Source: Myxococcota bacterium
GTDB taxonomy: Bacteria > Myxococcota_A > UBA9160 > UBA4427
DNA: 64,000 nt
Direction of reading: 5' to 3'
NCBI GenBank assembly: GCA_965250285.1
Contig: OZ252299.1
Location: 3,776,001-3,840,000, forward strand
A model generated the notes under the pieces. It made no database searches, was not told the origin of the DNA, and worked only from the letters and a program-made list of their open reading frames with translations. Position 1 is the first letter of the stretch, and each line of letters starts with the position of its first letter. Both the position numbers and the translations under genes were made by a program. Shown in pieces: positions 48,424-60,289 of this stretch.

Positions 48424-49731
48424 TCAGCCCGAATCGGCGTTCTTCGGTGAGGCCGACTCTTCGACCGGTCGACCCGTGCGGAGCGTGCTGATCTCGACGA
48501 TGCCCGGCCGAAAGAACGTGCCCCAGAGCCAGTCGAAGGCGATCTGCAATCGCCGGGCGAGGCTTGGCATCTTCGACCAGTAGATCGCGCGCCACATCAG
48601 GTAGGCCGGCCAACCGGTCACATGTCGGCCGAACGGGTTGCCCACGGCGCGGCCGCGGCCGACCGCCGCGAACATCCCCTTCGTGTGATAGCGGAAGGGC
48701 TTGGGCTGACCCCCAGCGATCACCGCCGCCAGGTTCTCGGCGAGCTGATGCGCCTGCCGCACGGCGAACTGGCCGAGGGTCGGCGAGATGCTCCCGTCGA
48801 ATGCGTTCGGCACCGCCGCGCAGTCGCCGAGGGCCCAGACGTCTTCGCGCCCCTCGACCCGCATCTCGCCCGAGACGACGACGCGTTTGCGGTCCATCGG
48901 CAGCGACGCCTTGGCCAGCAGGGGTTGCACGTTGGTCCCGACCGCGCAGACCACGGTTCCGGCCTCGAGCGAATCGCCGTCGCCGAACTCGATGCCGTGC
49001 GCCGTCACGGCCTTCACCGAGGCGCGATTGCGCACCTCGACGCCGCGGTCTTCGAGATCGCGCTTTGCGCGGGCCGACAGATCTTCGGGGAGCGGCCCGA
49101 GGATGCGTGGGCCGCCGTCGACCAGCGTGACGCGCCGATCCGCCGGACCGAAGCGTTCGTAGAAGTCGGTGGCCTCGATGAGGAGGTCCACGATCGACCC
49201 GGCGACCTCGACGCCCGTGAAGCCGCCGCCGACCACCGCGAAGGAGAGTCTGCGCGCGCGCTGCGCGGGATCGGGCTCGTCCTCGGCCATCTCGAGCTGT
49301 TGGATGACGTGATTGCGGAGCGCGAGCGCGTCGCCGAGGGTCTTGAGCGGCCAGGCGTGGTGTTCCATCCCCGGCACGATCGTGAGGTCGGCCGCCTGGC
49401 CGCAGGCGAGCACGAGGTGGTCGTACGGCTCTCGGAGGGTCTGGCCGCTCGGGCTCTCGTAGACGACCTCTCTGGCGTCCAGATCGATGTCGAGGATTGC
49501 GGCGGTTCGGCAGGACACCCCCTGGACCATCTCGCGCACGGGCCACACGACGTGAAGGGGGTCGACGGCCGCACCCACGACCTCGGCCAGCAAGGGCGTG
49601 AAGACGAAGTGGTTCTCTCGACTGAACACGAGGATCTCGTAGCCCGCAGGCAGCTTGCGGCGGAGATCACCCGCCAGCGTGGCGCCGGCAAAGCCGCCAC
49701 CGATGATCACGATCCGCCCCGACCCCGACAT
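48424..49731 (-). CDS. ndh: Type II NADH:quinone oxidoreductase family flavoprotein
   Basis: IGGGFAG, FTPLL, YDHLVLA, VGGGFTGVE, WALGDCA, AVRQA, PFRY. Confidence 0.9.
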   Translation of the reverse strand: MSGSGRIVIIGGGFAGATLAGDLRRKLPAGYEILVFSRENHFVFTPLLAEVVGAAVDPLHVVWPVREMVQGVSCRTAAILDIDLDAREVVYESPSGQTLREPYDHLVLACGQAADLTIVPGMEHHAWPLKTLGDALALRNHVIQQLEMAEDEPDPAQRARRLSFAVVGGGFTGVEVAGSIVDLLIEATDFYERFGPADRRVTLVDGGPRILGPLPEDLSARAKRDLEDRGVEVRNRASVKAVTAHGIEFGDGDSLEAGTVVCAVGTNVQPLLAKASLPMDRKRVVVSGEMRVEGREDVWALGDCAAVPNAFDGSISPTLGQFAVRQAHQLAENLAAVIAGGQPKPFRYHTKGMFAAVGRGRAVGNPFGRHVTGWPAYLMWRAIYWSKMPSLARRLQIAFDWLWGTFFRPGIVEISTLRTGRPVEESASPKNADSG

Positions 49732-49877
49732 GTGTGCAAGCTACTCCATCTCGGCCGGTCGGCACTCGAACGCGGCTTCTCAGTCGACCGTTTCGCTGAT
49801 TCGAGCGCGCAGATCCGTGTATATTCGCAGGCGGCGTGGGCGGCCTCGAACGTCGCCCCTCGACGAGTGATCCTATC

Positions 49878-50918
49878 GTGCACCCCCGAACGGCGCGTCG
49901 ATCTCTGCACCGTGTGGCCGTGGGCGCGACCACCGCCCTGACCGCACTCCTGCCCGCCGTCGTCGTGGCCGAGGACGCCGCGCCGGGCTCGACGAGTGTG
50001 TTCGCGGCGGCCTCGGTCCCCGCCCAGGGCATCGTCGAGTACAGCCATCTCGTCATCGGCATCTGTGCGGCGATCTTCGTCGTCGTGATGAGCCTGATCG
50101 CCTTCACGGTCGTGCGCTACCGCGGACGACCGGGCGACGACGACCGCGAGCCCGCCCAGGTCTACGGCTCGAATCAGCTCGAACTCGCTTGGACGGTCGT
50201 GCCGATCATCATCGTGTTCGTGCTCTCGCTGGTCACCGTGCGCACGATCCTCGAGCTCCAGATCGACGAGCAGCCCGAGGGCTGGATGCCCGTGACCGTC
50301 GTGGGGCACCAGTGGTGGTGGGAGTTCGAGTATCCCGAGTACGGCTTCACGACGGCGAACGAGCTGCATCTGCCTTCGGGCCGGCCGACGTTCCTCAACC
50401 TGCAGAGCGCCGACGTCGTGCACTCGTTCTGGGTCCCCCAGCTGGCGGGCAAGACCGACGTGATCCCGAACCGTGAGAATCACATGTGGGTCGAGCCGAC
50501 CGAAGAAGGCGTGTTCGTCGGTCAATGTGCGGAGTACTGCGGCACGCAGCATGCGCACATGCTCTTGCGGGTCACTGTGCACACGCCCGAGGGTTTCGAG
50601 GCGTGGGCCAGAGCGCAGGCGCGCGAGGCCAGCCACGCGCAGGGCGTCGAGGCGGGGCGACAGATCTTTCTCGAGACGGCGTGCATCAACTGCCACACCG
50701 TGCGGGGCACGGTCGCCAACGGCCGCTTCGGCCCCGACCTCACGCACCTGATGGAGCGCCAGACGATCGGCGCCGGCGTCGCGCCGAACGACGCCGAGAA
50801 CCTCCGCGCCTGGGTGGCCGACCCCGACCACCTCAAGAGCGGCGCGCTGATGCCCGCGATGGGGCTGAACGATCACGAGATCGACGCCGTCGTCGCGTAT
50901 CTGATGACGCTGGAGTAG
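49878..50918 (+). CDS. coxB: Cytochrome c oxidase subunit II with fused cytochrome c (caa3 type)
   Basis: LELAWT, GHQWWWEFEY, CuA ligands DVVHSF...CAEYCGTQHAHM, C-terminal CINCH...MP. Start uncertain. Confidence 0.95.
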   Translation: MHPRTARRSLHRVAVGATTALTALLPAVVVAEDAAPGSTSVFAAASVPAQGIVEYSHLVIGICAAIFVVVMSLIAFTVVRYRGRPGDDDREPAQVYGSNQLELAWTVVPIIIVFVLSLVTVRTILELQIDEQPEGWMPVTVVGHQWWWEFEYPEYGFTTANELHLPSGRPTFLNLQSADVVHSFWVPQLAGKTDVIPNRENHMWVEPTEEGVFVGQCAEYCGTQHAHMLLRVTVHTPEGFEAWARAQAREASHAQGVEAGRQIFLETACINCHTVRGTVANGRFGPDLTHLMERQTIGAGVAPNDAENLRAWVADPDHLKSGALMPAMGLNDHEIDAVVAYLMTLE

Positions 50919-50925
50919 CCGAGCG

Positions 50926-52611
50926 ATGACGACACTCGACCCGCCGGTGCAGACCCCGATCGAAGCCACGCGTACGCAGCGCGCGGGATGGACCGAGGTG
51001 TTGCACGAATGGGTCGTGACGGTCGACCACAAGAAGCTCGGCATCATGTACATCACGTGCGGGGTGGTGTTTCTGGTCATCGGCGGGCTCGAGGCCACGG
51101 CGATGCGCCTGCAGCTCTTCTTCGCCGAGAACGATCTGATGGAGCCCGATACGTTCAATCGGCTCTTCACCGTGCACGGTACGACGATGGTCTTCTTCGT
51201 CGGCATGCCGATCGTCACCGGCTTCGGCAACTACCTGCTGCCGCTGATGGTTGGCGCCCGAGACATGGCCTTCCCACGACTCAACGCGTGGGGCTTCTGG
51301 ATGTTCCTGTTCGGTGCCCTGCTCTTCTATTTCAGCTACATCGGCAGCGAGGGCCTCTACGGCGCCGGCTCAGCACCCGACGTCGGCTGGTTCGCCTACG
51401 CCCCCCTCACGGGCAAGGCCTTCTCGCGGGGCAACGCGACCGACTACTGGATCCTCGGCATTCTCATCTCGGGCTTCGGCAGCATGTCGGGCGCGATCAA
51501 CATGATCACCACGGCGCTCACGATGCGGTGCCCGGGCATGACGCTCGCGAAGCTGCCGCTGTTCGTCTGGATGATGATGATCGTGTCGTTCCTGATGCTG
51601 ATCGCCCTGCCGCCCCTCACGGCCGCCCAGGTGATGCTGCTCTTCGACCGGTTCCTGGGGGCTCACTTCTTCGATACCCAAGCCGGCGGCGACGCCGTGC
51701 TCTGGCAACACTTCTTCTGGTTCTTCGGGCACCCCGAGGTCTACATCCTCATGCTGCCCGGCTTCGCCTACGCGTCCGAGATCATCCCCGTGTTCTCGCG
51801 CAAGGTGATCTTCGGCTACCCGATCATGGTGGCAGCGACCGCCGCGATCGGCGTGCTCTCGCTCGGCGTGTGGGCCCACCACATGTTCACCGTCGGCATG
51901 AGCCAGCCGCTCAACGTCTGGTTCGCGCTGGCGACGATGCTCGTCGGCGTGCCGACCGGCATCAAGATCTTCAACTGGATCGGTACGATGTTCGGCGGCA
52001 AGATCCGCTTCCGGCCGCCGATGATGTTCTGCATCGCCTTCCTCTTCCAGTTCGTGATCGCCGGGCTGACGGGCATCATGCTCGCCGCAGCCCCGTTCAC
52101 CTGGCAGCTCTCCGATTCGTACTTCGTGGTGGCGCACTTCCACTACGTGCTGATCGGCGGCCTCGTCTTCACGATCTTCGGCGCCATCTACTACTGGTTC
52201 CCGAAGATGTCCGGCCGCATGGTCGACGAGCGACTGGCCAAGGCACACTTCTGGCTCTTCGTCGTCGGCTTCCAGATCTCGTTCAACACGATGCACGTGC
52301 AGGGGCTGCTCGGGATGCCGCGCCGGGTCTACACGTACCCGGCCGACCGAGGCTGGGAGATCTGGAATCAGATCACGACGCTCGGCATCGCGTTCCAGAT
52401 CATCGGCCTGCTCTTCTTCGTCGCAGCGATCCTGCTCGCGCTGCGCAAGGGTGAGCCGGCGGGCCCCGACCCGTGGGACGCCTGGACGCTCGAGTGGTCG
52501 ACGAGCTCACCGCCGCCGGCGTACAACTTCGAAGAGATCCCCGAGGTCAAGAGCCGTCGACCGCTGTGGGACGCCAAGCACCCCGAAGACCCGGATTGGT
52601 TGTATGAGTAG
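50926..52611 (+). CDS. coxA: Cytochrome c oxidase subunit I, A1 type
   Basis: DHKKLG, TVHG, GHPEVY, WAHHM, VAHFHY, GMPRR. Confidence 0.97.
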   Translation: MTTLDPPVQTPIEATRTQRAGWTEVLHEWVVTVDHKKLGIMYITCGVVFLVIGGLEATAMRLQLFFAENDLMEPDTFNRLFTVHGTTMVFFVGMPIVTGFGNYLLPLMVGARDMAFPRLNAWGFWMFLFGALLFYFSYIGSEGLYGAGSAPDVGWFAYAPLTGKAFSRGNATDYWILGILISGFGSMSGAINMITTALTMRCPGMTLAKLPLFVWMMMIVSFLMLIALPPLTAAQVMLLFDRFLGAHFFDTQAGGDAVLWQHFFWFFGHPEVYILMLPGFAYASEIIPVFSRKVIFGYPIMVAATAAIGVLSLGVWAHHMFTVGMSQPLNVWFALATMLVGVPTGIKIFNWIGTMFGGKIRFRPPMMFCIAFLFQFVIAGLTGIMLAAAPFTWQLSDSYFVVAHFHYVLIGGLVFTIFGAIYYWFPKMSGRMVDERLAKAHFWLFVVGFQISFNTMHVQGLLGMPRRVYTYPADRGWEIWNQITTLGIAFQIIGLLFFVAAILLALRKGEPAGPDPWDAWTLEWSTSSPPPAYNFEEIPEVKSRRPLWDAKHPEDPDWLYE

Positions 52612-53206
52612 TGCGCAGCCCGACATTCATGCGGGGCACGGTCTCCCGGGCGCAGCGCATGGCGACGGGCGCGGGCGCGTCGGCGTCGCGCTGCTGATCC
52701 TCTCCGAGTCGGCGTTCTTCGCGGTGTTTCTCGCGGCCTACGGGTTCTACATCGGCAAGAGCCTGCATGGCCCGATGCCCGCCGACGTGCTCGAGTTCCC
52801 CGCGCTCGGCACGATCTGCCTGCTCTCGAGCAGCGGCACGATCATGCTCGCGACCCGCGGCCTCGCGGCCGGCGCCATCGGCCGGTTCGCGCTCTGGCTG
52901 GCCGTGACGTGGGCACTCGGCTCGGTCTTCCTCGCGGTGACCGCGATCGAGTGGGGTCACCTCTTCTCGGCAGGGCTCACCATTCGCACCAACCTGTTCG
53001 GAACCACCTTTTTCTCGCTGGTCGGCTTCCATGCGGCCCACGTCGCGATCGGCGTGGGGATCATGACGCTGCTCCTCGCGCTCAGCGCGCGTGGCGTCAT
53101 GCAAGCTGCGCATACCGAACGGGTCGAGCTCTTCTCGTGGTACTGGCATTTCGTCGACGTGGTCTGGATCGCGGTGGCCACGCTCGTCTACGTGATCGGC
53201 CGATGA
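52604..53206 (+). CDS. coxC: Cytochrome c oxidase subunit III (short, 5-TM form)
   Basis: ILSESAFF, LLSSSGT, GFHAAHV, YWHFVDVVW. Confidence 0.93.
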   Translation: MSSAQPDIHAGHGLPGAAHGDGRGRVGVALLILSESAFFAVFLAAYGFYIGKSLHGPMPADVLEFPALGTICLLSSSGTIMLATRGLAAGAIGRFALWLAVTWALGSVFLAVTAIEWGHLFSAGLTIRTNLFGTTFFSLVGFHAAHVAIGVGIMTLLLALSARGVMQAAHTERVELFSWYWHFVDVVWIAVATLVYVIGR

Positions 53207-53228: not shown

Positions 53229-54098
53229 ATGACCGAAGAGCACGACACAGCGCACGAGACGACCGAAGACGGGATCGACCTGCCGACCCCGACGGCGTGG
53301 CCGGTCGTCTTCGCGCTCGGCATTTCGCTGCTCTTCGCCGGACTCGTCACGAACGTGATCGTCAGCTGGGTCGGCGCCGTGCTCTTCGTCTCGGGCGCGG
53401 TTGGCTGGTGGTTCGACATGTTCCCGGCCGAACGACACGAACGGGTCGCGCTGCAGCCCGCTTCGATGCGCCCGCCCCCGATCACGCCTCGTCCGGCGGC
53501 CGTCGAGCACCTGCGCGCCGGCGAAGGCGGGCATCGTGTGCGACTGCCCCTCGAGGTGCAGCCCTACTCGGCCGGGCTCCGGGGGGGCGCCGCGGGCGGG
53601 GTCGCCATGGCGCTCGTCGCCATGCTCTACGGCGTGCTGGCCCAGGGCAGCCCGTTCTATCCGATCAACCTGTTCGCGGCCACGGTCATGCCGTCACTCA
53701 ACACCGCCGACCTCGAGACGCTGCGCGCCTTCAACGGCACCGCGTTCGGACTCGCTTGCGTGCTGCACTTCGGCCTCTCGATGTTGGTCGGCCTCGTCTA
53801 CGCGGCGCTGCTCCCGACACTGCCCGGCCGCACCTGGCTGTGGGGTGGGCTCATCGCCCCGATCGCGTGGAGCGGCGTCGCCTGGGTGACGCTCGGCCTG
53901 GTCGCGCCTGCGCTCAACCAGCGCATCGACTGGATCTGGTTCATCGCATCGCAGGCGGCCTTCGGACTCGTCGCCGGGTTCGTGATCGCGCGCATCGAGC
54001 CGATTGCGGTCCTTCAGCGATTGCCCCTCGCGTCGAAAGCGGGCCTCGAAGCCCGCGGCGTGTCGCCATCGCACGACGATTCGGAGGCCGACTCGTGA
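53229..54098 (+). CDS. Membrane protein with CtaF/subunit-IV-like N-terminal hairpin plus about 4 further TM helices
   Basis: IDLPTPTAWPVVFALG...VGWW, a soluble linker, then hydrophobic helices. Sits between the cox and qcr genes. Confidence 0.65.
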   Translation: MTEEHDTAHETTEDGIDLPTPTAWPVVFALGISLLFAGLVTNVIVSWVGAVLFVSGAVGWWFDMFPAERHERVALQPASMRPPPITPRPAAVEHLRAGEGGHRVRLPLEVQPYSAGLRGGAAGGVAMALVAMLYGVLAQGSPFYPINLFAATVMPSLNTADLETLRAFNGTAFGLACVLHFGLSMLVGLVYAALLPTLPGRTWLWGGLIAPIAWSGVAWVTLGLVAPALNQRIDWIWFIASQAAFGLVAGFVIARIEPIAVLQRLPLASKAGLEARGVSPSHDDSEADS

Positions 54099-54841
54099 CC
54101 CGGCTGCCCATGATCGCGTGCACCGTCACCGGGCTCGCGCTTCTCGCGTGCGGCGACCTGCCGGGCAAGCCGACCGAAGCCGATCGCTTCGTGCATCCGC
54201 AAGAGATCGTCGACTTCGACACGCTCTATGGCCTGCACTGCTCGGGCTGTCACGGCGAGGAGGGTCGACTCGGTCCGGCCCAGGCGCTGAACGACCCCGT
54301 CTATCTCGCCTACGCGCCCGACGAGGTGATGGTCTCGATCGTCCGCGACGGCGTGGCCGGCACGTCGATGCCGGCCTTCGGCATCGAGCGAGGCGGGCCG
54401 CTCACGGCCGCCCAGGTCGAGGCGCTGGTCGGCGGCCTGCGTGAGCGGTGGCGGGGGACGCCGCCCGACGACGTGCCGCCGTACCGTGCGACGGCTTCGG
54501 CCGAACCGGTCGACGAGCGCGAGGGGGCGCGCGTGTTCGAGCAGTTCTGTGGACGCTGTCACGGCGCCCATGGCCGGGGCACGAGCCAGGCCGGTGCCGT
54601 CGTCGACACGACCTACCTTTCGCTGCGCAGCGACCAGGGCCTGCGCACGACCGTCGTGGTCGGGCGGCCCGACCTCGAGATGCCCGACTGGCGAAGCCAT
54701 TCGCGCCACGGCGCGATGACCGAGCCCGAGATCGACACGGTCGTCGCCTGGATGATCTCGAAACGCAGCGCCTATCCCGGGCAGCCCTACCCCGATGACG
54801 CCCCGGCCAACGCAGCGCGCGCAGACGGAGGAATGCGCTGA
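54095..54841 (+). CDS. Diheme cytochrome c lipoprotein (QcrC-like role)
   Basis: Lipobox LLAC; CSGCH...MPAF and CGRCH...MPDW. GTGA overlap with the upstream gene. Confidence 0.88.
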   Translation: MTRLPMIACTVTGLALLACGDLPGKPTEADRFVHPQEIVDFDTLYGLHCSGCHGEEGRLGPAQALNDPVYLAYAPDEVMVSIVRDGVAGTSMPAFGIERGGPLTAAQVEALVGGLRERWRGTPPDDVPPYRATASAEPVDEREGARVFEQFCGRCHGAHGRGTSQAGAVVDTTYLSLRSDQGLRTTVVVGRPDLEMPDWRSHSRHGAMTEPEIDTVVAWMISKRSAYPGQPYPDDAPANAARADGGMR

Positions 54842-55380
54842 TGTCCGACCCCGAAGCGTCCAAGCCCGGGCGACCGCCCAGCGTCCCGCCGGTCACCCGC
54901 CGCAGCTTCTTGTTCAAGCTCGGCCTCGGCCTGAACGCGATCGCCGCTTCGGCGCTGGCGATCCCCATCGTCGGCTTCATCTCGAGCGCGGTCTTCAAGC
55001 GCAAGGCGCAGCAGGCCTGGATCCCGCTCGGCGACATGACGCACTTTCCCGAGCGCGAGACGCGGCTCGCGACCTATCGCAACCCCTTCACGCGACCTTG
55101 GGATGGCGTCACCGGCGACATCCCGTGCTGGGTGCGTCACATCGAGGGCGGCCAGTTCCAGGTCTTCGCCATCAACTGCGCTCACCTCGGCTGCCCCGTG
55201 CGGTGGTTCCCCGAGTCGGGGCTCTTCATGTGCCCGTGCCACGGCGGCGTCTACTACGAAGACGGCTCGGTCGCTTCGGGTCCGCCGCCGCGTGGGCTGT
55301 TCGAGTACGAGTACAAGATCGAGAAGGGACAGCTCTGGGTGCGCGGTGGTCGCGTGCCCACGCTGTCGCAGTCGGTCTAG
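54841..55380 (+). CDS. qcrA: Rieske iron-sulfur subunit of a bc complex
   Basis: Tat motif TRRSFL, TM helix, CAHLGC, CPCHGG, GPPPRGL. Confidence 0.93.
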   Translation: MSDPEASKPGRPPSVPPVTRRSFLFKLGLGLNAIAASALAIPIVGFISSAVFKRKAQQAWIPLGDMTHFPERETRLATYRNPFTRPWDGVTGDIPCWVRHIEGGQFQVFAINCAHLGCPVRWFPESGLFMCPCHGGVYYEDGSVASGPPPRGLFEYEYKIEKGQLWVRGGRVPTLSQSV

Positions 55381-55394
55381 CGGGCGGCGTTTCG

Positions 55395-56858
55395 ATGAGA
55401 GAGAGACTCGAAGCCCTGGGTGCCTGGCTCGATCAGCGACTGAAGCTGCAGTCGCTCTACGCTTCGTCGGCGGGGCACATGATCCCGCGGCGCTCGGCGA
55501 GCTGGTGGTACGTCCTCGGCAGCGCGACCCTGCTCTGCTTCGTGATTCAGATCGTGACCGGCATCTGTCTGTCGCTCGTCTACGTGCCCTCGACCACCGA
55601 GGCCTACGCGAGCCTCGAGTATCTCAACTATCAGCAAGCGATGGGCTGGTATCTCCGCGCCGTGCACTTCTGGGGCTCGAACTTCATGGTCGCCCTGCTC
55701 ACGCTCCACGTGATTCAGGTCTTCCTGTTCGGTGCGTACAAGTACCCCCGCGAGCTCACCTGGCTCGTTGGCTGCGTGCTGCTCGTGCTGACGCTGGGCG
55801 CCGCGTTCACCGGCCAGATCATGCGCTTCGATCAAGACGCGTACTGGGGGCTGGGCATTGGCGTCTCGATCATCGGCCGCGTGCCGCTCGTCGGCCCCGA
55901 GCTCGTCTCGCTCGTGCTCGGGGGGCCGATCATCGCGGGCGAGACCCTGTCGCGCTTCTTCACGCTGCACGTCTTCATCGTGCCCGGGCTGCTCATCGCA
56001 CTGATCTTCCTGCACCTGCGCCTCGTCCTGACGAACGGGATCAACGAGTATCCGACCCGCGGCCAGGAGGTCGATCCCGAGACGTACGACGAGGAGTACG
56101 AAGCCCTCGTCGAGCACGAAGGGATCCGCTTCTTCCCGGATGGCGCCGACCGCGACCTGGTCTTCGCCTTCGTCGTGCTCGCCGGCATCCTCGGCTGTGC
56201 CGCCATCTTCGGCCCGGAGGGCCCGAACGGCCCGCCCGACCCCACGCTGATCAACACGGCCCCCCGGCCCGACTTCTACTTCCTGTCGCTCTTCGCGGTG
56301 CTGGCGCTCTTGCCGCCGGCGATCGAAGACTTCTTCATCCTGGGCGTGCTGCCGCTCATCGTACTGATCCTCTTTGCCGTCCCGTTCATCTCGAACCGCG
56401 GTGCGAAGCACCCCGCCGACCGGCCGATGTCGGTGATCCTCGTCGTGCTCGTGATGACGACGATCGTGACCTTCGCGGTGCTCGGGCTGCGTTCACCGTG
56501 GTCGCCGCACATGGACGCGTGGAGCGGCGAGCCGATGCCGCCGGCCGTGATCGAGGGTCGCGCACCGCTCGAGCTCGCCGGCGCCGCCGTGTTCCAATCG
56601 AAGCAGTGTCGCAACTGTCACGCGATCGACGGGTCGGGCGGGGAGCGCGGGCCCGATCTCGGCGACGTCGCCACGCGCCTGACCTCGGATCAGCTGACGC
56701 GCCAGGTGCTGCAAGGCGGCGGCAACATGCCCGCGTACGGCAAGCACCTGAGCCCGGCCCAGACCACCGCCCTCGTCGCGTTCATGCGCACGCTCTACCC
56801 GGCCAACCAGCTGCCTGCACGCGACTCGGCGATCCCGGCCCGACCCGAGCCGCAATGA
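55395..56858 (+). CDS. qcrB: Cytochrome b (unsplit) with C-terminal fused cytochrome c
   Basis: RAVHFWG...TLH, KYPRE, RFFTLHV...FLH, Qo motif PDFY, C-terminal CRNCH...MPAY. Confidence 0.93.
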   Translation: MRERLEALGAWLDQRLKLQSLYASSAGHMIPRRSASWWYVLGSATLLCFVIQIVTGICLSLVYVPSTTEAYASLEYLNYQQAMGWYLRAVHFWGSNFMVALLTLHVIQVFLFGAYKYPRELTWLVGCVLLVLTLGAAFTGQIMRFDQDAYWGLGIGVSIIGRVPLVGPELVSLVLGGPIIAGETLSRFFTLHVFIVPGLLIALIFLHLRLVLTNGINEYPTRGQEVDPETYDEEYEALVEHEGIRFFPDGADRDLVFAFVVLAGILGCAAIFGPEGPNGPPDPTLINTAPRPDFYFLSLFAVLALLPPAIEDFFILGVLPLIVLILFAVPFISNRGAKHPADRPMSVILVVLVMTTIVTFAVLGLRSPWSPHMDAWSGEPMPPAVIEGRAPLELAGAAVFQSKQCRNCHAIDGSGGERGPDLGDVATRLTSDQLTRQVLQGGGNMPAYGKHLSPAQTTALVAFMRTLYPANQLPARDSAIPARPEPQ

Positions 56859-56925: not shown

Positions 56926-59178
56926 GTGAACCCGCACCTCGCTGCCGCGCTGCTCTCCTGGTCGATCGAACCCGCGATCGCCGTCGCGATCGCGCTCACG
57001 GCAGCCCTCTACCTACGCGGGTTCTCTTCGCTGCGCCGCCTCCATCCCGAGCGCCTCCCGACATGGCGGCGCACGGCGTTCCTCGCCGGGCTCGGCACAT
57101 TCTGGATCGCGGTGGCGTCGCCGATCGACGCGTTCGCCGATCTGTTCCTCCAGGCGCACATGGCGCAGCACGTCTTGCTGATGCTCGTCGCGCCGCCGCT
57201 CGTCTGGCTGGGCGCTCCGGCCAACCCGATCCTGCACGGACTGCCGCGGCGCGTGCTCGCTCACGGACTCGGGCCTTTTCTCGGCTGGCCAGCGCTCGGC
57301 CGGGTCGGTCGGTTCCTCACCCATCCGGTGACGGCCTGGCTTCTGTTCTCGGCGACGCTCTGGGCGTGGCACGCGCCGCGCGCCTACCAGCTCGCCCTGC
57401 GCGATCCGTTCTGGCACGACGTCGAACACCTGAGCTTCTTCGGCGCCGCGCTCCTCTTCTGGTACCCCGTCGTGCAGCCCTGGCCGGGGCACGCGGTCTG
57501 GCCCCGCGCCGCCATGCTGCCGTACCTGGCGCTCGCCGGCGTTCAGATGACCGCGTTCTCCGCCGTCTTCGCGTTCTCGTCCCACGTCTACTACCCGGCC
57601 TACCTCGAGGTCCCTCGCCTCTTCGCGACCTCGGCGCTGACCGATCAGCGCGCGGCCGGCGCGGTGATGTGGGTGCCCGGCTCGATCGTGCTGCTCGTCG
57701 CGATCGGCGGCGCTGCCTTCTCGGTCGTCGAGCCGCGCATCGTGCAACCGTCGACACGCGGCACTGCGCCGATGAAGCAGGCTCCGCCTCTTTGGCGCAG
57801 CGCCGTCACCAGAACGCTCATGACGCCGCGAACGCGCCGCGTCGCGCAGTGGACGCTCCTGCTCCTCGCCCTTGCCATCGTGATCGACGGCGCCTTCGGC
57901 CCCACGCTGGCCGAGCGCAACGCCGCCGGCGTGCTGCCGTGGACCTTCTGGCGCGCGTGCGCTGTCGTCGGCCTCGTCGTCGCCGGCAACTGGGTCTGCT
58001 TCGCCTGCCCCTTTACCCTGCCCCGATCGCTCGCCCGTCGCTGGCTCGGCGGCGACCACACCCCGCCCCCGATCCTGCGCAGCAAGTGGATCGGCGTGGC
58101 GCTGTTCGTCGCATTCCTGATCTCGTACGAAGTGTTCGATCTCTGGAACCGACCGGGCTGGACGGCCACGATCATCGCCGGCTACTTCGCCGCCGCCTTC
58201 GCGGTCGATGGTCGATACGGCGCGGCCACGTTCTGCCGTTCGACGTGCCCGATCGGCCAGTTCCAGTTCACCGGCGCCCTGGTCTCGCCTCTCGAGGTCG
58301 GAGTGCGCAGCGACGCCGTTTGCGCGCGGTGCACGACCCACGAGTGCCTCGTGGGCGATGCGGCGTCACCGGGCTGCGAGCTCGACCTGTTTCAGCCAGC
58401 GAAGATCGGCAATCTCGACTGTACGTTCTGCTTCGACTGCGCGACGGCGTGCCCGCACGACAACGTGACGCTGCGGGCCCATTCGCCGCTGCCCGATCTC
58501 GTGAGCGACGCGCCCCGGGCCGGCCTCGGCCGCCTGTCGGCCCGCGCCGACCTCGCGGCCTTCGCGCGCATCTTCGTCTTTGGCGCCTTCGCGAACGCCG
58601 CCGCGATGGTCGCGCCCGTCACGGCGCTGCGCGACCGGCTCGCCGCGGCGAGCCCCGTCGGCGAAGACGTCGCCACGGCGATCCTGCTCGCGGTCGCCCT
58701 CGTCGCCGTGCCTTTTGGCGTCACCCGGGTCTGCACGCACCTCGGCGCATTCGTCGCGCACGATGCGCGCGCTACGGCCGAGCAGCGGCGCATCGAGCGG
58801 CGATTCGTGTTCGGGCTCGTTCCGTTGGGTCTTGCTCTTTGGCTCGGCCACTTCGTCTTCCACGGTGTCACCGCGGGACCGGCCTGGCAGAATCTCGCGG
58901 CGCGCGCGAGTGGCGAAGTCGGTGCCTCGATGGCTGCACCGTGGCTCGCGATCGAGTCACTGATGGCGTTCGAGATCGCCGCCCTGGGCGTGGGTCTCTG
59001 GATCAGCGCCGCGGCGCTTTGGAAGATTGCTCTCGATCTGGCACCGAACACGCGACGGGCATTCTCGTGGTTCATGCCCTGGGGCGCCCTCGCCCTCGCA
59101 CTGTGGGCGCTCGGGCTCTGGATCGTCTTTCAGCCGATGGAGATGCGCGGCGCGATGACGATGGCGGGCATGGGATGA
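56926..59178 (+). CDS. Caa3_CtaG oxidase assembly domain fused to a membrane polyferredoxin (CcoG/NapH-like) domain
   Basis: N-half: AHMAQH...APPL, WAWHAP, HDVEH, DQRAAGAVMWVPG. C-half: CFACP, CRSTCP, CARCTTHEC, CTFCFDCATACP. Met-rich tail. Confidence 0.85.
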   Translation: MNPHLAAALLSWSIEPAIAVAIALTAALYLRGFSSLRRLHPERLPTWRRTAFLAGLGTFWIAVASPIDAFADLFLQAHMAQHVLLMLVAPPLVWLGAPANPILHGLPRRVLAHGLGPFLGWPALGRVGRFLTHPVTAWLLFSATLWAWHAPRAYQLALRDPFWHDVEHLSFFGAALLFWYPVVQPWPGHAVWPRAAMLPYLALAGVQMTAFSAVFAFSSHVYYPAYLEVPRLFATSALTDQRAAGAVMWVPGSIVLLVAIGGAAFSVVEPRIVQPSTRGTAPMKQAPPLWRSAVTRTLMTPRTRRVAQWTLLLLALAIVIDGAFGPTLAERNAAGVLPWTFWRACAVVGLVVAGNWVCFACPFTLPRSLARRWLGGDHTPPPILRSKWIGVALFVAFLISYEVFDLWNRPGWTATIIAGYFAAAFAVDGRYGAATFCRSTCPIGQFQFTGALVSPLEVGVRSDAVCARCTTHECLVGDAASPGCELDLFQPAKIGNLDCTFCFDCATACPHDNVTLRAHSPLPDLVSDAPRAGLGRLSARADLAAFARIFVFGAFANAAAMVAPVTALRDRLAAASPVGEDVATAILLAVALVAVPFGVTRVCTHLGAFVAHDARATAEQRRIERRFVFGLVPLGLALWLGHFVFHGVTAGPAWQNLAARASGEVGASMAAPWLAIESLMAFEIAALGVGLWISAAALWKIALDLAPNTRRAFSWFMPWGALALALWALGLWIVFQPMEMRGAMTMAGMG

Positions 59179-59717
59179 ATCGACGCCTCGGCGCACTCGC
59201 CCTCGTCGCGGCCGTCGATCTCTGGGTCGGCGTCGCGCTCGCCGACGGTGGGCGGCTGATCCTGCGTGAAGCGCGCGACGGAGTGATCGCAAGCGTGCTC
59301 GCCGCGCCGGTGCCGCTGCGTGTCGGTGCGGCCGCGTTCGACGTGCTCGTGCAGGATCCCGATACGGGCGCGCCCATGGCGGTCGACGCGGTGCGGCTTC
59401 GCGTGACGGGACCCGACGTCTGCGGGACGACCGAGCTCGACGCCCGCACTGAGTCGGGCGTCAACCGGCTCTTCTACGGCGCTTCGATGCGTCTGCCGAT
59501 GCCCGGCCGTTGGCAGGTCGAGGCCTGGATCGAAACCGAGACCGGCGCGACCGTGTTCACGACTGAGCTCGAGGTCGCGCCCGCCCTCCCGCCTGCGCAG
59601 CGCTACTGGCCATGGATCGCCGCCACGCTGGTCGGCCTCGTCGTTCTGTTCGTGCACCAGGCCCGCACGCTCGGCCGCCCGCGATCGGATCGTCGATCGC
59701 CGGGTCGACTACGCTGA
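59175..59717 (+). CDS. YtkA/FixH-like periplasmic protein with C-terminal TM anchor
   Basis: ATGA overlap; signal peptide ending VALA-D; PVPLRVG...VLVQD...FYGASMRLPMPGRW; TM YWPWIAATLVGLVVLFV. Confidence 0.6.
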   Translation: MNRRLGALALVAAVDLWVGVALADGGRLILREARDGVIASVLAAPVPLRVGAAAFDVLVQDPDTGAPMAVDAVRLRVTGPDVCGTTELDARTESGVNRLFYGASMRLPMPGRWQVEAWIETETGATVFTTELEVAPALPPAQRYWPWIAATLVGLVVLFVHQARTLGRPRSDRRSPGRLR

Positions 59718-59725
59718 GCCGGGCC

Positions 59726-60289
59726 ATGGCGATTCGGCTCTTCTGCGTCCTGTCTCTTGTCGCGATGTCGGCGTGCATCCCGATCTCGGTCACCGACTAT
59801 GAGCATCCACCGACGATGGCAATGCGCGACCAGATGCAGAGCGGTCTCGTCGACCGCACGTACGACGCGCTTGGCCCCGAGCTGGTGGTCGTGCCCGACT
59901 TCGAGCGGTTCGCCGAGCACGAGCGCAATCGCAATCGCCTCGGTGTGCTGCGCTTCGCTGCGAAACAGCCTCGTGCCATCGAGATCGAGTCGGCGACGCT
60001 CCGAGACGATGCGACCGGGATCACGATCGACGCCGAGCTCGATGGTCGATCCCGGGTCGAGATGCGAGTCCCCCCGGCGTACGCCTACTACCCGTATGAC
60101 GGCGTCGATTTCGAACACACCGAGGGCCGCATCGTGCTCTTTCGGCTCCCCGACGCGCGATTGGCAGCGTTCGGCTCGCCGGATCGCATGACGCTCGACG
60201 TCCGCTTTCGAATCGCAGGCGAACCCGGCGAGCGCAGGTCGACGTTCAGTCTGGAGCGGGTGGAGAAGACGCTGTGGGTGACCGACTAG
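59726..60289 (+). CDS. Hypothetical lipoprotein
   Basis: MAIRLFCVLSLVAMSAC lipoprotein-like signal; starts 8 bp after the previous gene. Confidence 0.6.
   Translation: MAIRLFCVLSLVAMSACIPISVTDYEHPPTMAMRDQMQSGLVDRTYDALGPELVVVPDFERFAEHERNRNRLGVLRFAAKQPRAIEIESATLRDDATGITIDAELDGRSRVEMRVPPAYAYYPYDGVDFEHTEGRIVLFRLPDARLAAFGSPDRMTLDVRFRIAGEPGERRSTFSLERVEKTLWVTD

Follow-up and report, generated by a model that had tools for sequence, protein, structure and literature searches.

A conserved CtaG-polyferredoxin fusion closing a caa3-cytochrome bc operon in Myxococcota, a probable copper-centre assembly factor

The present study asks what a single gene in a 64,000-nucleotide window of a Myxococcota bacterium genome (assembly GCA_965250285.1, contig OZ252299.1, forward-strand positions 3,776,001 to 3,840,000) encodes and what its product may do. 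The gene, at 56926..59178 (+; coordinates refer to the window unless stated otherwise), specifies a chain of 750 amino acids with 16 predicted membrane helices, in which a CtaG domain is joined to an iron-sulfur (Fe-S) membrane domain, here called the C-half, and it is followed by a gene for a 180-residue partner (59175..59717, +), the two together occupying 56926..59717. Could one chain combine reduction of copper with its delivery to an oxidase, as the original prediction for this locus proposed? The fusion is a real, uncharacterised combination of known copper-assembly parts, both halves coming from known superfamilies, and judging from sequence it is very probably a copper-centre assembly factor that would load copper into the adjoining oxidase.

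The open reading frame (ORF) is single and continuous as predicted, running through both halves without a stop, and the expected translational coupling was confirmed by an ATGA overlap that places the partner's start within the stop of the fusion; the same overlap occurs in 28 of the 66 related loci with a partner, where the partner start was chosen by the analyst. An alternative explanation could be that the fusion is an artefact of assembly or gene calling, with two genes in relatives, but the probability of this is practically negligible. Among 78 genome loci in which both halves were present, three did not have them in one frame, but in these the query ranges were contiguous or overlapping in shifted frames, as frameshifts would give, and in the other 75 both halves shared one frame. 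Of 7997 candidates scored in a search with the fusion protein, 861 were homologues at E<=0.001; the 120 matches listed are almost all near full length, at 41–63% identity, and some carry the automatic JGI name “CtaG/polyferredoxin”. A protein of the cultured Lacipirellula limnantheis is also among the matches. Sequencing contigs from three runs, all of one study that may be the window's own source, cover the stretch with zero differences, and each run has a piece bridging the linker between the halves. The fusion gene is thus real and widely conserved in bacteria. A genome scan confirmed at least 570 of at least 600 pattern matches; the best 80, under a ranking that favours full-length matches, were kept, and these come from Acidobacteriota, Verrucomicrobiota, Planctomycetota, Binatia and Myxococcota. 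The pattern PM[EQ]MR was used to fetch loci, so that counts of M738 and M740 in the fetched loci are partly circular; the set of 120 homologues used for conservation was gathered without Cys or Met patterns and is free of that. Among relatives of the source genome the C-half is patchy, with matches in 14 of 36 family genomes, 12 of them strong.

The fusion and its partner close an A1-type caa3-cytochrome bc operon. Of the 80 fused loci, 57 had coxA, 66 had cytochrome b and 66 had the partner; in the 61 loci with 7.8 kb or more of upstream sequence, coxA and cytochrome b were each found in 55, with neither gene in five. The proposed link to an A-family heme-copper oxidase was therefore upheld both in the window and in the survey of co-occurrence with cox genes, fused homologues being mostly oxidase-linked. 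Profile searches gave a clear match to Caa3_CtaG and weak ones to NapH/MauN and YtkA.

Active caa3 oxidase in Bacillus requires Caa3_CtaG. The N-terminal half of the fusion (residues 27–266; 57004..57723, +) belongs to this family (Pfam PF09678; 184.8 bits against a gathering cut-off of 27.7, E 2.2e-54, profile positions 1–233 of 237), with about seven helices and conserved His and Asp residues, as well as Met, predicted on the outer face. It is the single Caa3_CtaG found in the source genome. Across the 120 homologues H78, M79, H82, H149, H164 and H168 were invariant, D240 was kept in 119 and M248 in 113; D240 is equated with Bacillus D249 by motif position, without direct alignment. The cut-off of the Bacillus-type CtaG equivalog TIGR02737 was not reached (64.3 against 279.35 bits). 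The CtaG of Bacillus subtilis (PF09678) is similar in having the whole domain, seven predicted helices, outer-face His and Asp, and a position as last gene after the caa3 genes (PMC9145763 section 8; passages of PMC8239418), but it lacks the additional 460-residue Fe-S membrane domain and is set apart by that TIGR02737 difference. Passages of PMC8239418 place the candidate Cu ligands of CtaG on the outer side, matching what is predicted for the fusion. Caa3_CtaG is described as needed for caa3 oxidase, with both the centre served, CuA or CuB, and the source of copper unsettled (PMC9145763 section 8; passages of PMC13344008). A comparable protein is CtiP of Corynebacterium glutamicum, a CopD plus Caa3_CtaG fusion needed for a bc-aa3 supercomplex (PMC9145763 section 8). 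CtiP likewise has 16 helices and a companion on the outer side, CopC, that is anchored by its C-terminus. The order of domains differs: CtaG is C-terminal in CtiP and follows a CopD import domain, whereas the present fusion has CtaG at its N-terminus, with a redox domain behind it.

The C-half has 12 cysteines, all kept in 120/120 homologues. The first pair is a CxxCP motif (C358, C361; 57997..58011, +), predicted cytoplasmic and also invariant in 81/81 C-half members, and the second a CxxxCP motif (C437, C441; 58234..58251, +), invariant, likewise predicted cytoplasmic, and aligning with the second CxxxCP of the source genome's CcoG. Two CxxxCP-like motifs had been predicted; CRSTCP is the canonical form but CFACP is CxxCP, not CxxxCP. 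The eight-Cys ferredoxin-like domain (C466, C469, C474, C484, C499, C502, C505, C509; 58321..58455, +) contains the CxxCxxxxC and CxxCxxCxxxCP motifs expected, which with C484 make eight invariant cysteines, the count for one two-cluster ferredoxin and enough for two [4Fe-4S] clusters as in CcoG. The cluster assignment is accordingly a prediction from sequence; spacing in the first ferredoxin motif is non-standard, and Fer4 families were weakly matched by 49 to 65 of the 81 members.

Following the ferredoxin domain, in the position of the immunoglobulin-like (Ig) domain of CcoG, the C-half adds five helices that were overlooked earlier (58546..59175, +). This extension contains M561, position 638, H642, H646, M738 and M740, a predicted outer-face metal site. 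In the 120 homologues M561, H646 and M738 were kept in all, H642 in 119, M740 in 118 and M638 in 115, the window copy having Leu at that position. The five-Met tail that had attracted attention is present in the window copy but is not conserved: from PMxMR to the end, the 81 aligned C-halves have two Met in 21, three in 35, four in 13, five in 11 and six in one, only PM[EQ]MR is kept, and of the tail Met residues only M738 and M740 are conserved. An AlphaFold2 model of the fusion was nearly all-helical (mean predicted local distance difference test score, pLDDT, 89.8; predicted template modelling score 0.82), and from it were read the 16 membrane helices of the whole chain, with the C-half forming an 11-helix domain. 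A topology of alternating sides in which both termini are out assigns 32 Lys/Arg to inside loops and 10 to outside ones; this would place the CtaG residues and the His/Met site outside and C358/C361, C437/C441 and the eight ferredoxin cysteines inside. In helix 14, residues 638, 642 and 646 share one face. A mean-field coevolution analysis of a shallow set of 438 sequences (effective number 282) ranked F555-G730 third and also listed L638-G730 and L640-A686, joining helices 12, 14 and 16, and lone beta-bridges, which may pair with each other, appear in the model at 562 and 738. Together with the shared face of helix 14, these features suggest that helices 12, 14 and 16 gather M561, H642, H646, M738 and M740 at one outer-face site, which in the model is predicted to lie opposite the Cys and Fe-S sites. 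Foldseek found no match to the whole 750-residue model at E<=0.001, and the best VIA-align score was Z 7.8, to generic helical bundles; this was a whole-chain query and so gives no sign of a new fold. Among PDB sequences, a profile search gave one chance-level match.

In CcoG the CxxxCP motifs serve as Cu sites. The description of the C-half as a CcoG/FixG-like polyferredoxin was right as to the Cys layout of the NapH/CcoG superfamily but not as to orthology. The window protein had no match to CcoG/FixG TIGR02745 (cut-off 316.7), and 28 of the 81 members matched it weakly at E<=0.05 (best 1.3e-5), while the source genome's own CcoG, taken as a control, scored 484 bits. Alignment of the C-half with that CcoG by hhalign covered 83 columns only (probability 59%), bringing together the second Cys pair and the last ferredoxin motif. 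Like the fusion, CcoG/FixG and Escherichia coli YccM are membrane proteins in which two Cys-pair motifs precede an eight-Cys ferredoxin domain, with a gene beside a heme-copper oxidase. The fusion differs from CcoG/FixG in falling far below the TIGR02745 cut-off, in having one CxxCP and one CxxxCP where the source genome's CcoG has two CxxxCP, in having five extra helices with a His/Met site and no C-terminal periplasmic Ig-like domain, and in its A1 rather than cbb3 oxidase neighbour, a ccoGHIS/ccoNOQP context not being found around it. CcoG homologues of the YccM type also lack the Ig-like domain (passages of PMC7558416). The best library match was rather to NapH/MauN (TIGR02163) in 81/81 members, all scoring far below the cut-off of 213 (window copy 21.8 bits, E 3e-4, residues 356–516; best member E 5e-13). 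The ferredoxin-type membrane proteins NapH, MauN and NosH share the Cys layout, but the membrane extension of the fusion at the C-terminus is longer. By sequence, then, the C-half is a separate full-length family and not an orthologue of CcoG, found also unfused and away from oxidases.

How might the two halves work together? With the Cys and Fe-S sites predicted inside and the CtaG His site predicted outside, to reduce copper and hand it over needs a transmembrane step, which the earlier account did not name. The proposal made here builds on three observations, namely that the halves form one chain, where the gene lies in its operon, and that the 12 Cys and the His/Met residues of either half are nearly invariant; it takes the CtaG half as a caa3 assembly factor and CcoG, a relative by Cys layout, as the model for reduction. 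In the cytosol CcoG uses two Fe-S clusters to reduce Cu(II), a step that precedes those of CopZ and the CcoI ATPase (passages of PMC7558416, PMC8475189 and PMC8267372). In the fusion the predicted cytoplasmic Cys and [4Fe-4S] sites would reduce Cu(II); Cu(I) would travel along helix 14, on the face formed by M638, H642 and H646, to M561, M738 and M740, and from these would pass to the chain's own CtaG domain and then to the oxidase. The export step appears unfilled locally, since tblastn with the source genome's own copies found neither a P1B-ATPase nor Sco or PCuAC at any of the 80 fused loci. We rate the whole sequence of reduction inside and Cu(I) relay outward, which draws on sequence and model, at somewhat short of an even chance, with CuA slightly favoured over CuB as the centre served. 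It is possible but rather unlikely that the C-half is the founding member of a class of ATP-independent, redox-coupled Cu(I) relays, doing the work of CcoG, CopZ and CcoI in one chain. If this is true, fusion to CtaG would give a self-sufficient machine that loads copper into the caa3-bc supercomplex of abundant soil phyla, with unfused copies serving other metalloenzymes.

The partner protein would act as a cap or adaptor in this scheme, in place of CcoH or of the Ig domain of CcoG. It has a predicted signal peptide, a mature start of D-G-G and a C-terminal membrane anchor, and in its model (pLDDT 91.5) a beta-sandwich lies between the signal peptide and a C-terminal helix. Its match to YtkA was below the cut-off (PF13115; 17.3 bits against 25.9, E 0.0076), with 41 of 65 members matching at E<=0.05 (best 2e-7), and 10 of the 65 matched FixH (PF05751) at E<=0.05 (best E 2e-4); hhalign found no meaningful match between the partner and the ORF after the source genome's ccoG. 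The partner had been described as YtkA/FixH-like, and in fold it is, but across 65 cox-linked members no His, Met or Cys is conserved besides the start Met, the mature start being Asp in 63/65, so that its sequence does not mark it as a CtaK. CtaK, by contrast, has conserved His and Met and is a lipoprotein (passages of PMC9145763), where the partner has a predicted cleaved signal and a C-terminal anchor. A likeness of fold does not establish function, and an adaptor role for the partner is as likely as a copper-binding one. In one related locus (L074:12344-13834) the partner has 497 residues, with an apparent extra domain, and in two proteins (P0239 and P0206) the Fe-S half runs on into partner sequence across frameshift-like junctions that are probably artefacts. 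Among characterised relatives, which include YtkA/CtaK, FixH/CcoH, CrdA and FtrA/P19, the sandwich is nearest to CrdA and the P19 group: CrdA at Z 13.5 (root-mean-square deviation 2.2, 102 aligned), the Cu/Fe-binding HftA at 12.5, and Tp34 and FtrA/P19 at 11.8, with Foldseek concurring and generic sandwiches ranking lower (Z 10.6 or less). This resemblance to FtrA/P19, Tp34 and HftA could instead indicate a module comparable to FtrD with FtrA/P19, which would handle iron destined for the haem and Fe-S centres of the adjoining complexes. In Rubrivivax the membrane polyferredoxin FtrD accompanies FtrA (passages of PMC7415376). Such a module is very improbable, given the fusion to CtaG and one lineage of relatives beside Sco and PCuAC; no FTR1-type permease was noticed among recurring neighbours, with no search aimed at one.

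The C-half is also found by itself. Its nearest Atlas clusters are unfused “4Fe-4S binding proteins” of about 490–510 residues, mainly from Chloroflexota and Actinomycetota, and its profile matched 741 clusters at E<=1e-30 and 2742 at 0.001. We studied 80 unfused metagenome loci, from a scan seeded with unfused members, many of them on short contigs and mostly of one lineage, with up to 8 kb of flank. The 12 Cys and M561, H642, H646, M738 and M740 were kept in 80/80. A YtkA-like hidden Markov model (HMM) match occurred in 59/80 loci and a downstream ORF with a His-started motif in 69/80; partners of unfused relatives mostly have an H-x-G mature start, as opposed to D-G-G in the cox-linked partner. 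That the C-half and partner travel without CtaG raises the possibility that the halves are joined for co-expression only, CtaG assembling the oxidase while the C-half and partner buffer or import copper without feeding CtaG directly. The linker between the halves shows little conservation and is modelled by AlphaFold2 with low confidence, and an unfused copy in Deinococcus stands near a heavy-metal P-type ATPase and DUF305, both consistent with that idea. We nevertheless consider it unlikely, since the fusion is kept in those 75/78 loci in several phyla, persists in orphan copies and forms one clade: in a quick IQ-TREE search (LG+C20, 38 rows) the 23 fused forms grouped together (SH-aLRT, the Shimodaira-Hasegawa-like approximate likelihood-ratio test, 99) with the unfused L096 as sister (83). 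FastTree, with 51 rows, nested unfused forms inside fused ones, so that the two trees disagree on the order of fused and unfused forms.

The Deinococcus copy (L094:11009-13290, plasmid pDFI1 of Deinococcus ficus) is a distant, full-length unfused homologue that follows a His-rich, DGG-started, C-anchored protein, with DUF3105 also in the vicinity. Its match to the C-half was strong (hhalign 99.9%), with M740 and W639 both replaced by His, suggesting exchange of one ligand type for another; the upstream gene had weak likeness only to the partner (hhalign 13%; HMM E 1e-4, above 1000 shuffles). In the lineage L096-L098 the gene row is Sco, Sco, PCuAC, YtkA, FeS, YtkA. Other unfused loci mostly have a His-rich membrane protein, a YtkA-like lipoprotein, the FeS gene, a His-started partner and TPR/FG-GAP/ASPIC-UnbV proteins, a cassette seen at L140 (L140:6879-15484), L105, L171, L176, L178, L179, L190 and L194. 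The His-rich protein, in about 61/80 unfused loci, has 190 residues and many invariant His (HWxEH, FWHHIEH), with no Pfam match and a DUF6008 lead from Atlas; the idea that it is a split-off CtaG was unsupported (hhalign probability 2%). Under “FesM”, as a name for the unfused family, nothing relevant was found among the papers listed.

Several observations weigh against the copper relay. In four Verrucomicrobiota fused copies (L025, L034, L047 and L062) the upstream flank lacks both coxA and cytochrome b, and in the three inspected (L025, L034 and L062) the fused gene stands alone, with no partner and no oxidase genes nearby. Sco and PCuAC are present elsewhere in the source genome. The C-half, as seen above, is not an orthologue of CcoG and opens with CxxCP, and the partner, besides having no conserved ligand, resembles DUF4426, of unassigned function, at Z 12.0. 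The 80 unfused loci contained no coxA or coxB by tblastn and no ctaG by HMM, with Sco or PCuAC in three of 80 only, all of one lineage; unfused copies being mostly away from oxidases, the oxidase link belongs to the fusion and not to the C-half itself. In samples by phylum, with matches from 27 of 251 Acidobacteriota and 29 of 201 Planctomycetota genomes and only 6–8 candidates scored per genome, close unfused copies outnumbered fused ones by 4:0 in Acidobacteriota, with one more unassigned, and by 4:2 in Planctomycetota, the centre genome excluded. At five Planctomycetota loci (L196-L200) a more distant class of C-half of 600–665 residues that keeps the His/Met site lies beside a NapA/Fdh-like molybdoenzyme (830–1050 residues), NapG and NapH, and no copper enzyme was seen in the stretches read around them. 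Conversely, relatives linked to nosZ, beside a copper enzyme, lack the site, as do the fusions to sigma-54 activators. Two of the distant relatives in nosZ clusters (L182:7173-14479 and L183:3663-9464) have cupredoxins nearby, L182 also Sco, and one has an N-terminal cupredoxin domain.

These nap-like operons and nosZ clusters, together with the NapH/MauN library match, favour what is the main rival to the copper relay, namely that electrons and not copper cross the membrane. A NapH-like C-half would move reducing equivalents (quinol/ferredoxin) to the outer face, perhaps by way of a His/Met-ligated haem, and would there reduce CtaG-bound Cu(II) or keep the CuA cysteines reduced. We regard this as a serious contender but with a probability well below one half, because a set of three Met and two His is in general more like a soft-metal than a haem site, the nap-like operons already have a NapH of their own, and unfused partners are mostly His-started. 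A further alternative is that the C-half is a redox or metal sensor gating CtaG or expression of the operon, in the manner of NosR or of the sigma-54-fused relatives. NosR was weakly matched by 58 of the 81 members and fusions to cNMP and sigma-54 activator domains occur among distant relatives, but the absence of the His/Met site from those relatives and of any recognised signalling domain from the fusion (Pfam) makes a sensor quite improbable.

In the full-text literature, which leaves most subscription papers outside its scope, no functional description of a CtaG-polyferredoxin fusion was found, in keeping with what was originally stated. PMC8239418 is, in the passages available, restricted to CtaG proteins of 6–9 helices, and its supplements contain no mention of “ferredoxin”, “4Fe-4S” or “FeS”. 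Passages of PMC13344008 argue that A-type oxidases may require a cupric reductase of their own, but also point out that Bacillus is without CcoG. A natural CtaG-ferredoxin fusion conserved in Acidobacteriota, Planctomycetota, Verrucomicrobiota, Binatia and Myxococcota is a candidate for such a reductase. It makes testable both the source of copper and whether CuA or CuB is the target of Caa3_CtaG, with five residues named for mutation, and it offers a first functional lead for the large “4Fe-4S binding protein” family (the 741 clusters above).

The other genes of the operon stand in one row on the forward strand ahead of the fusion and partner. The row opens with coxB (49836..50918), a caa3-type subunit II with the CuA motif CAEYCGTQHAHM and a C-terminal haem c at CxxCH (TIGR02866, 193.9 bits against a cut-off of 147.7; start codon uncertain), followed by coxA (50926..52611; subunit I; TIGR02891, 700.9 bits against 670.75), in which a motif scan found GHPEVY, which we take to be an A1-type heme-copper oxidase signature, and coxC (52604..53206; subunit III; PF00510, E 7e-18). 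Next are a membrane protein with a subunit-IV-like N-terminus (53229..54098; PF12270, E 9e-4, below cut-off), present in 58/80 loci, a dihaem cytochrome c with two CxxCH (54095..54841; PF13442, E 1e-16), a Rieske protein (54841..55380; PF00355, E 1e-7) and a cytochrome b fused to cytochrome c (55395..56858; PF00033, E 3e-44; PF13442, E 3e-13), in which the motif scan found the Qo motif PDFY. A caa3-bc1 “superoperon” of this arrangement, with A1 caa3 genes upstream of bc1 genes, is described for Acidobacteria in passages of PMC8407424, which do not mention the two assembly genes, and cytochrome b-c fusions are known in these phyla (passages of PMC4122944). After the partner is a lipoprotein-like ORF of 187 residues (59726-60289, +) with no Pfam or NCBIfam match and no match in the 80 related loci, and divergent from the operon is a type II NADH dehydrogenase-like gene (48424-49731, -). 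Elsewhere in the source genome (coordinates of contig C1) a cbb3 operon (3506436-3515016) holds a true ccoG, an ORF resembling ccoH and an ATPase gene resembling ccoI, and there is another heme-copper oxidase operon, the third (1476074-1481118). The genome also encodes CtaA, CtaB, PCuAC and two Sco, and has a third subunit I. The weak subunit-IV-like N-terminus, the dihaem cytochrome c and the PDFY motif within 53229-56858 recall the bc-aa3 supercomplexes of actinobacteria.

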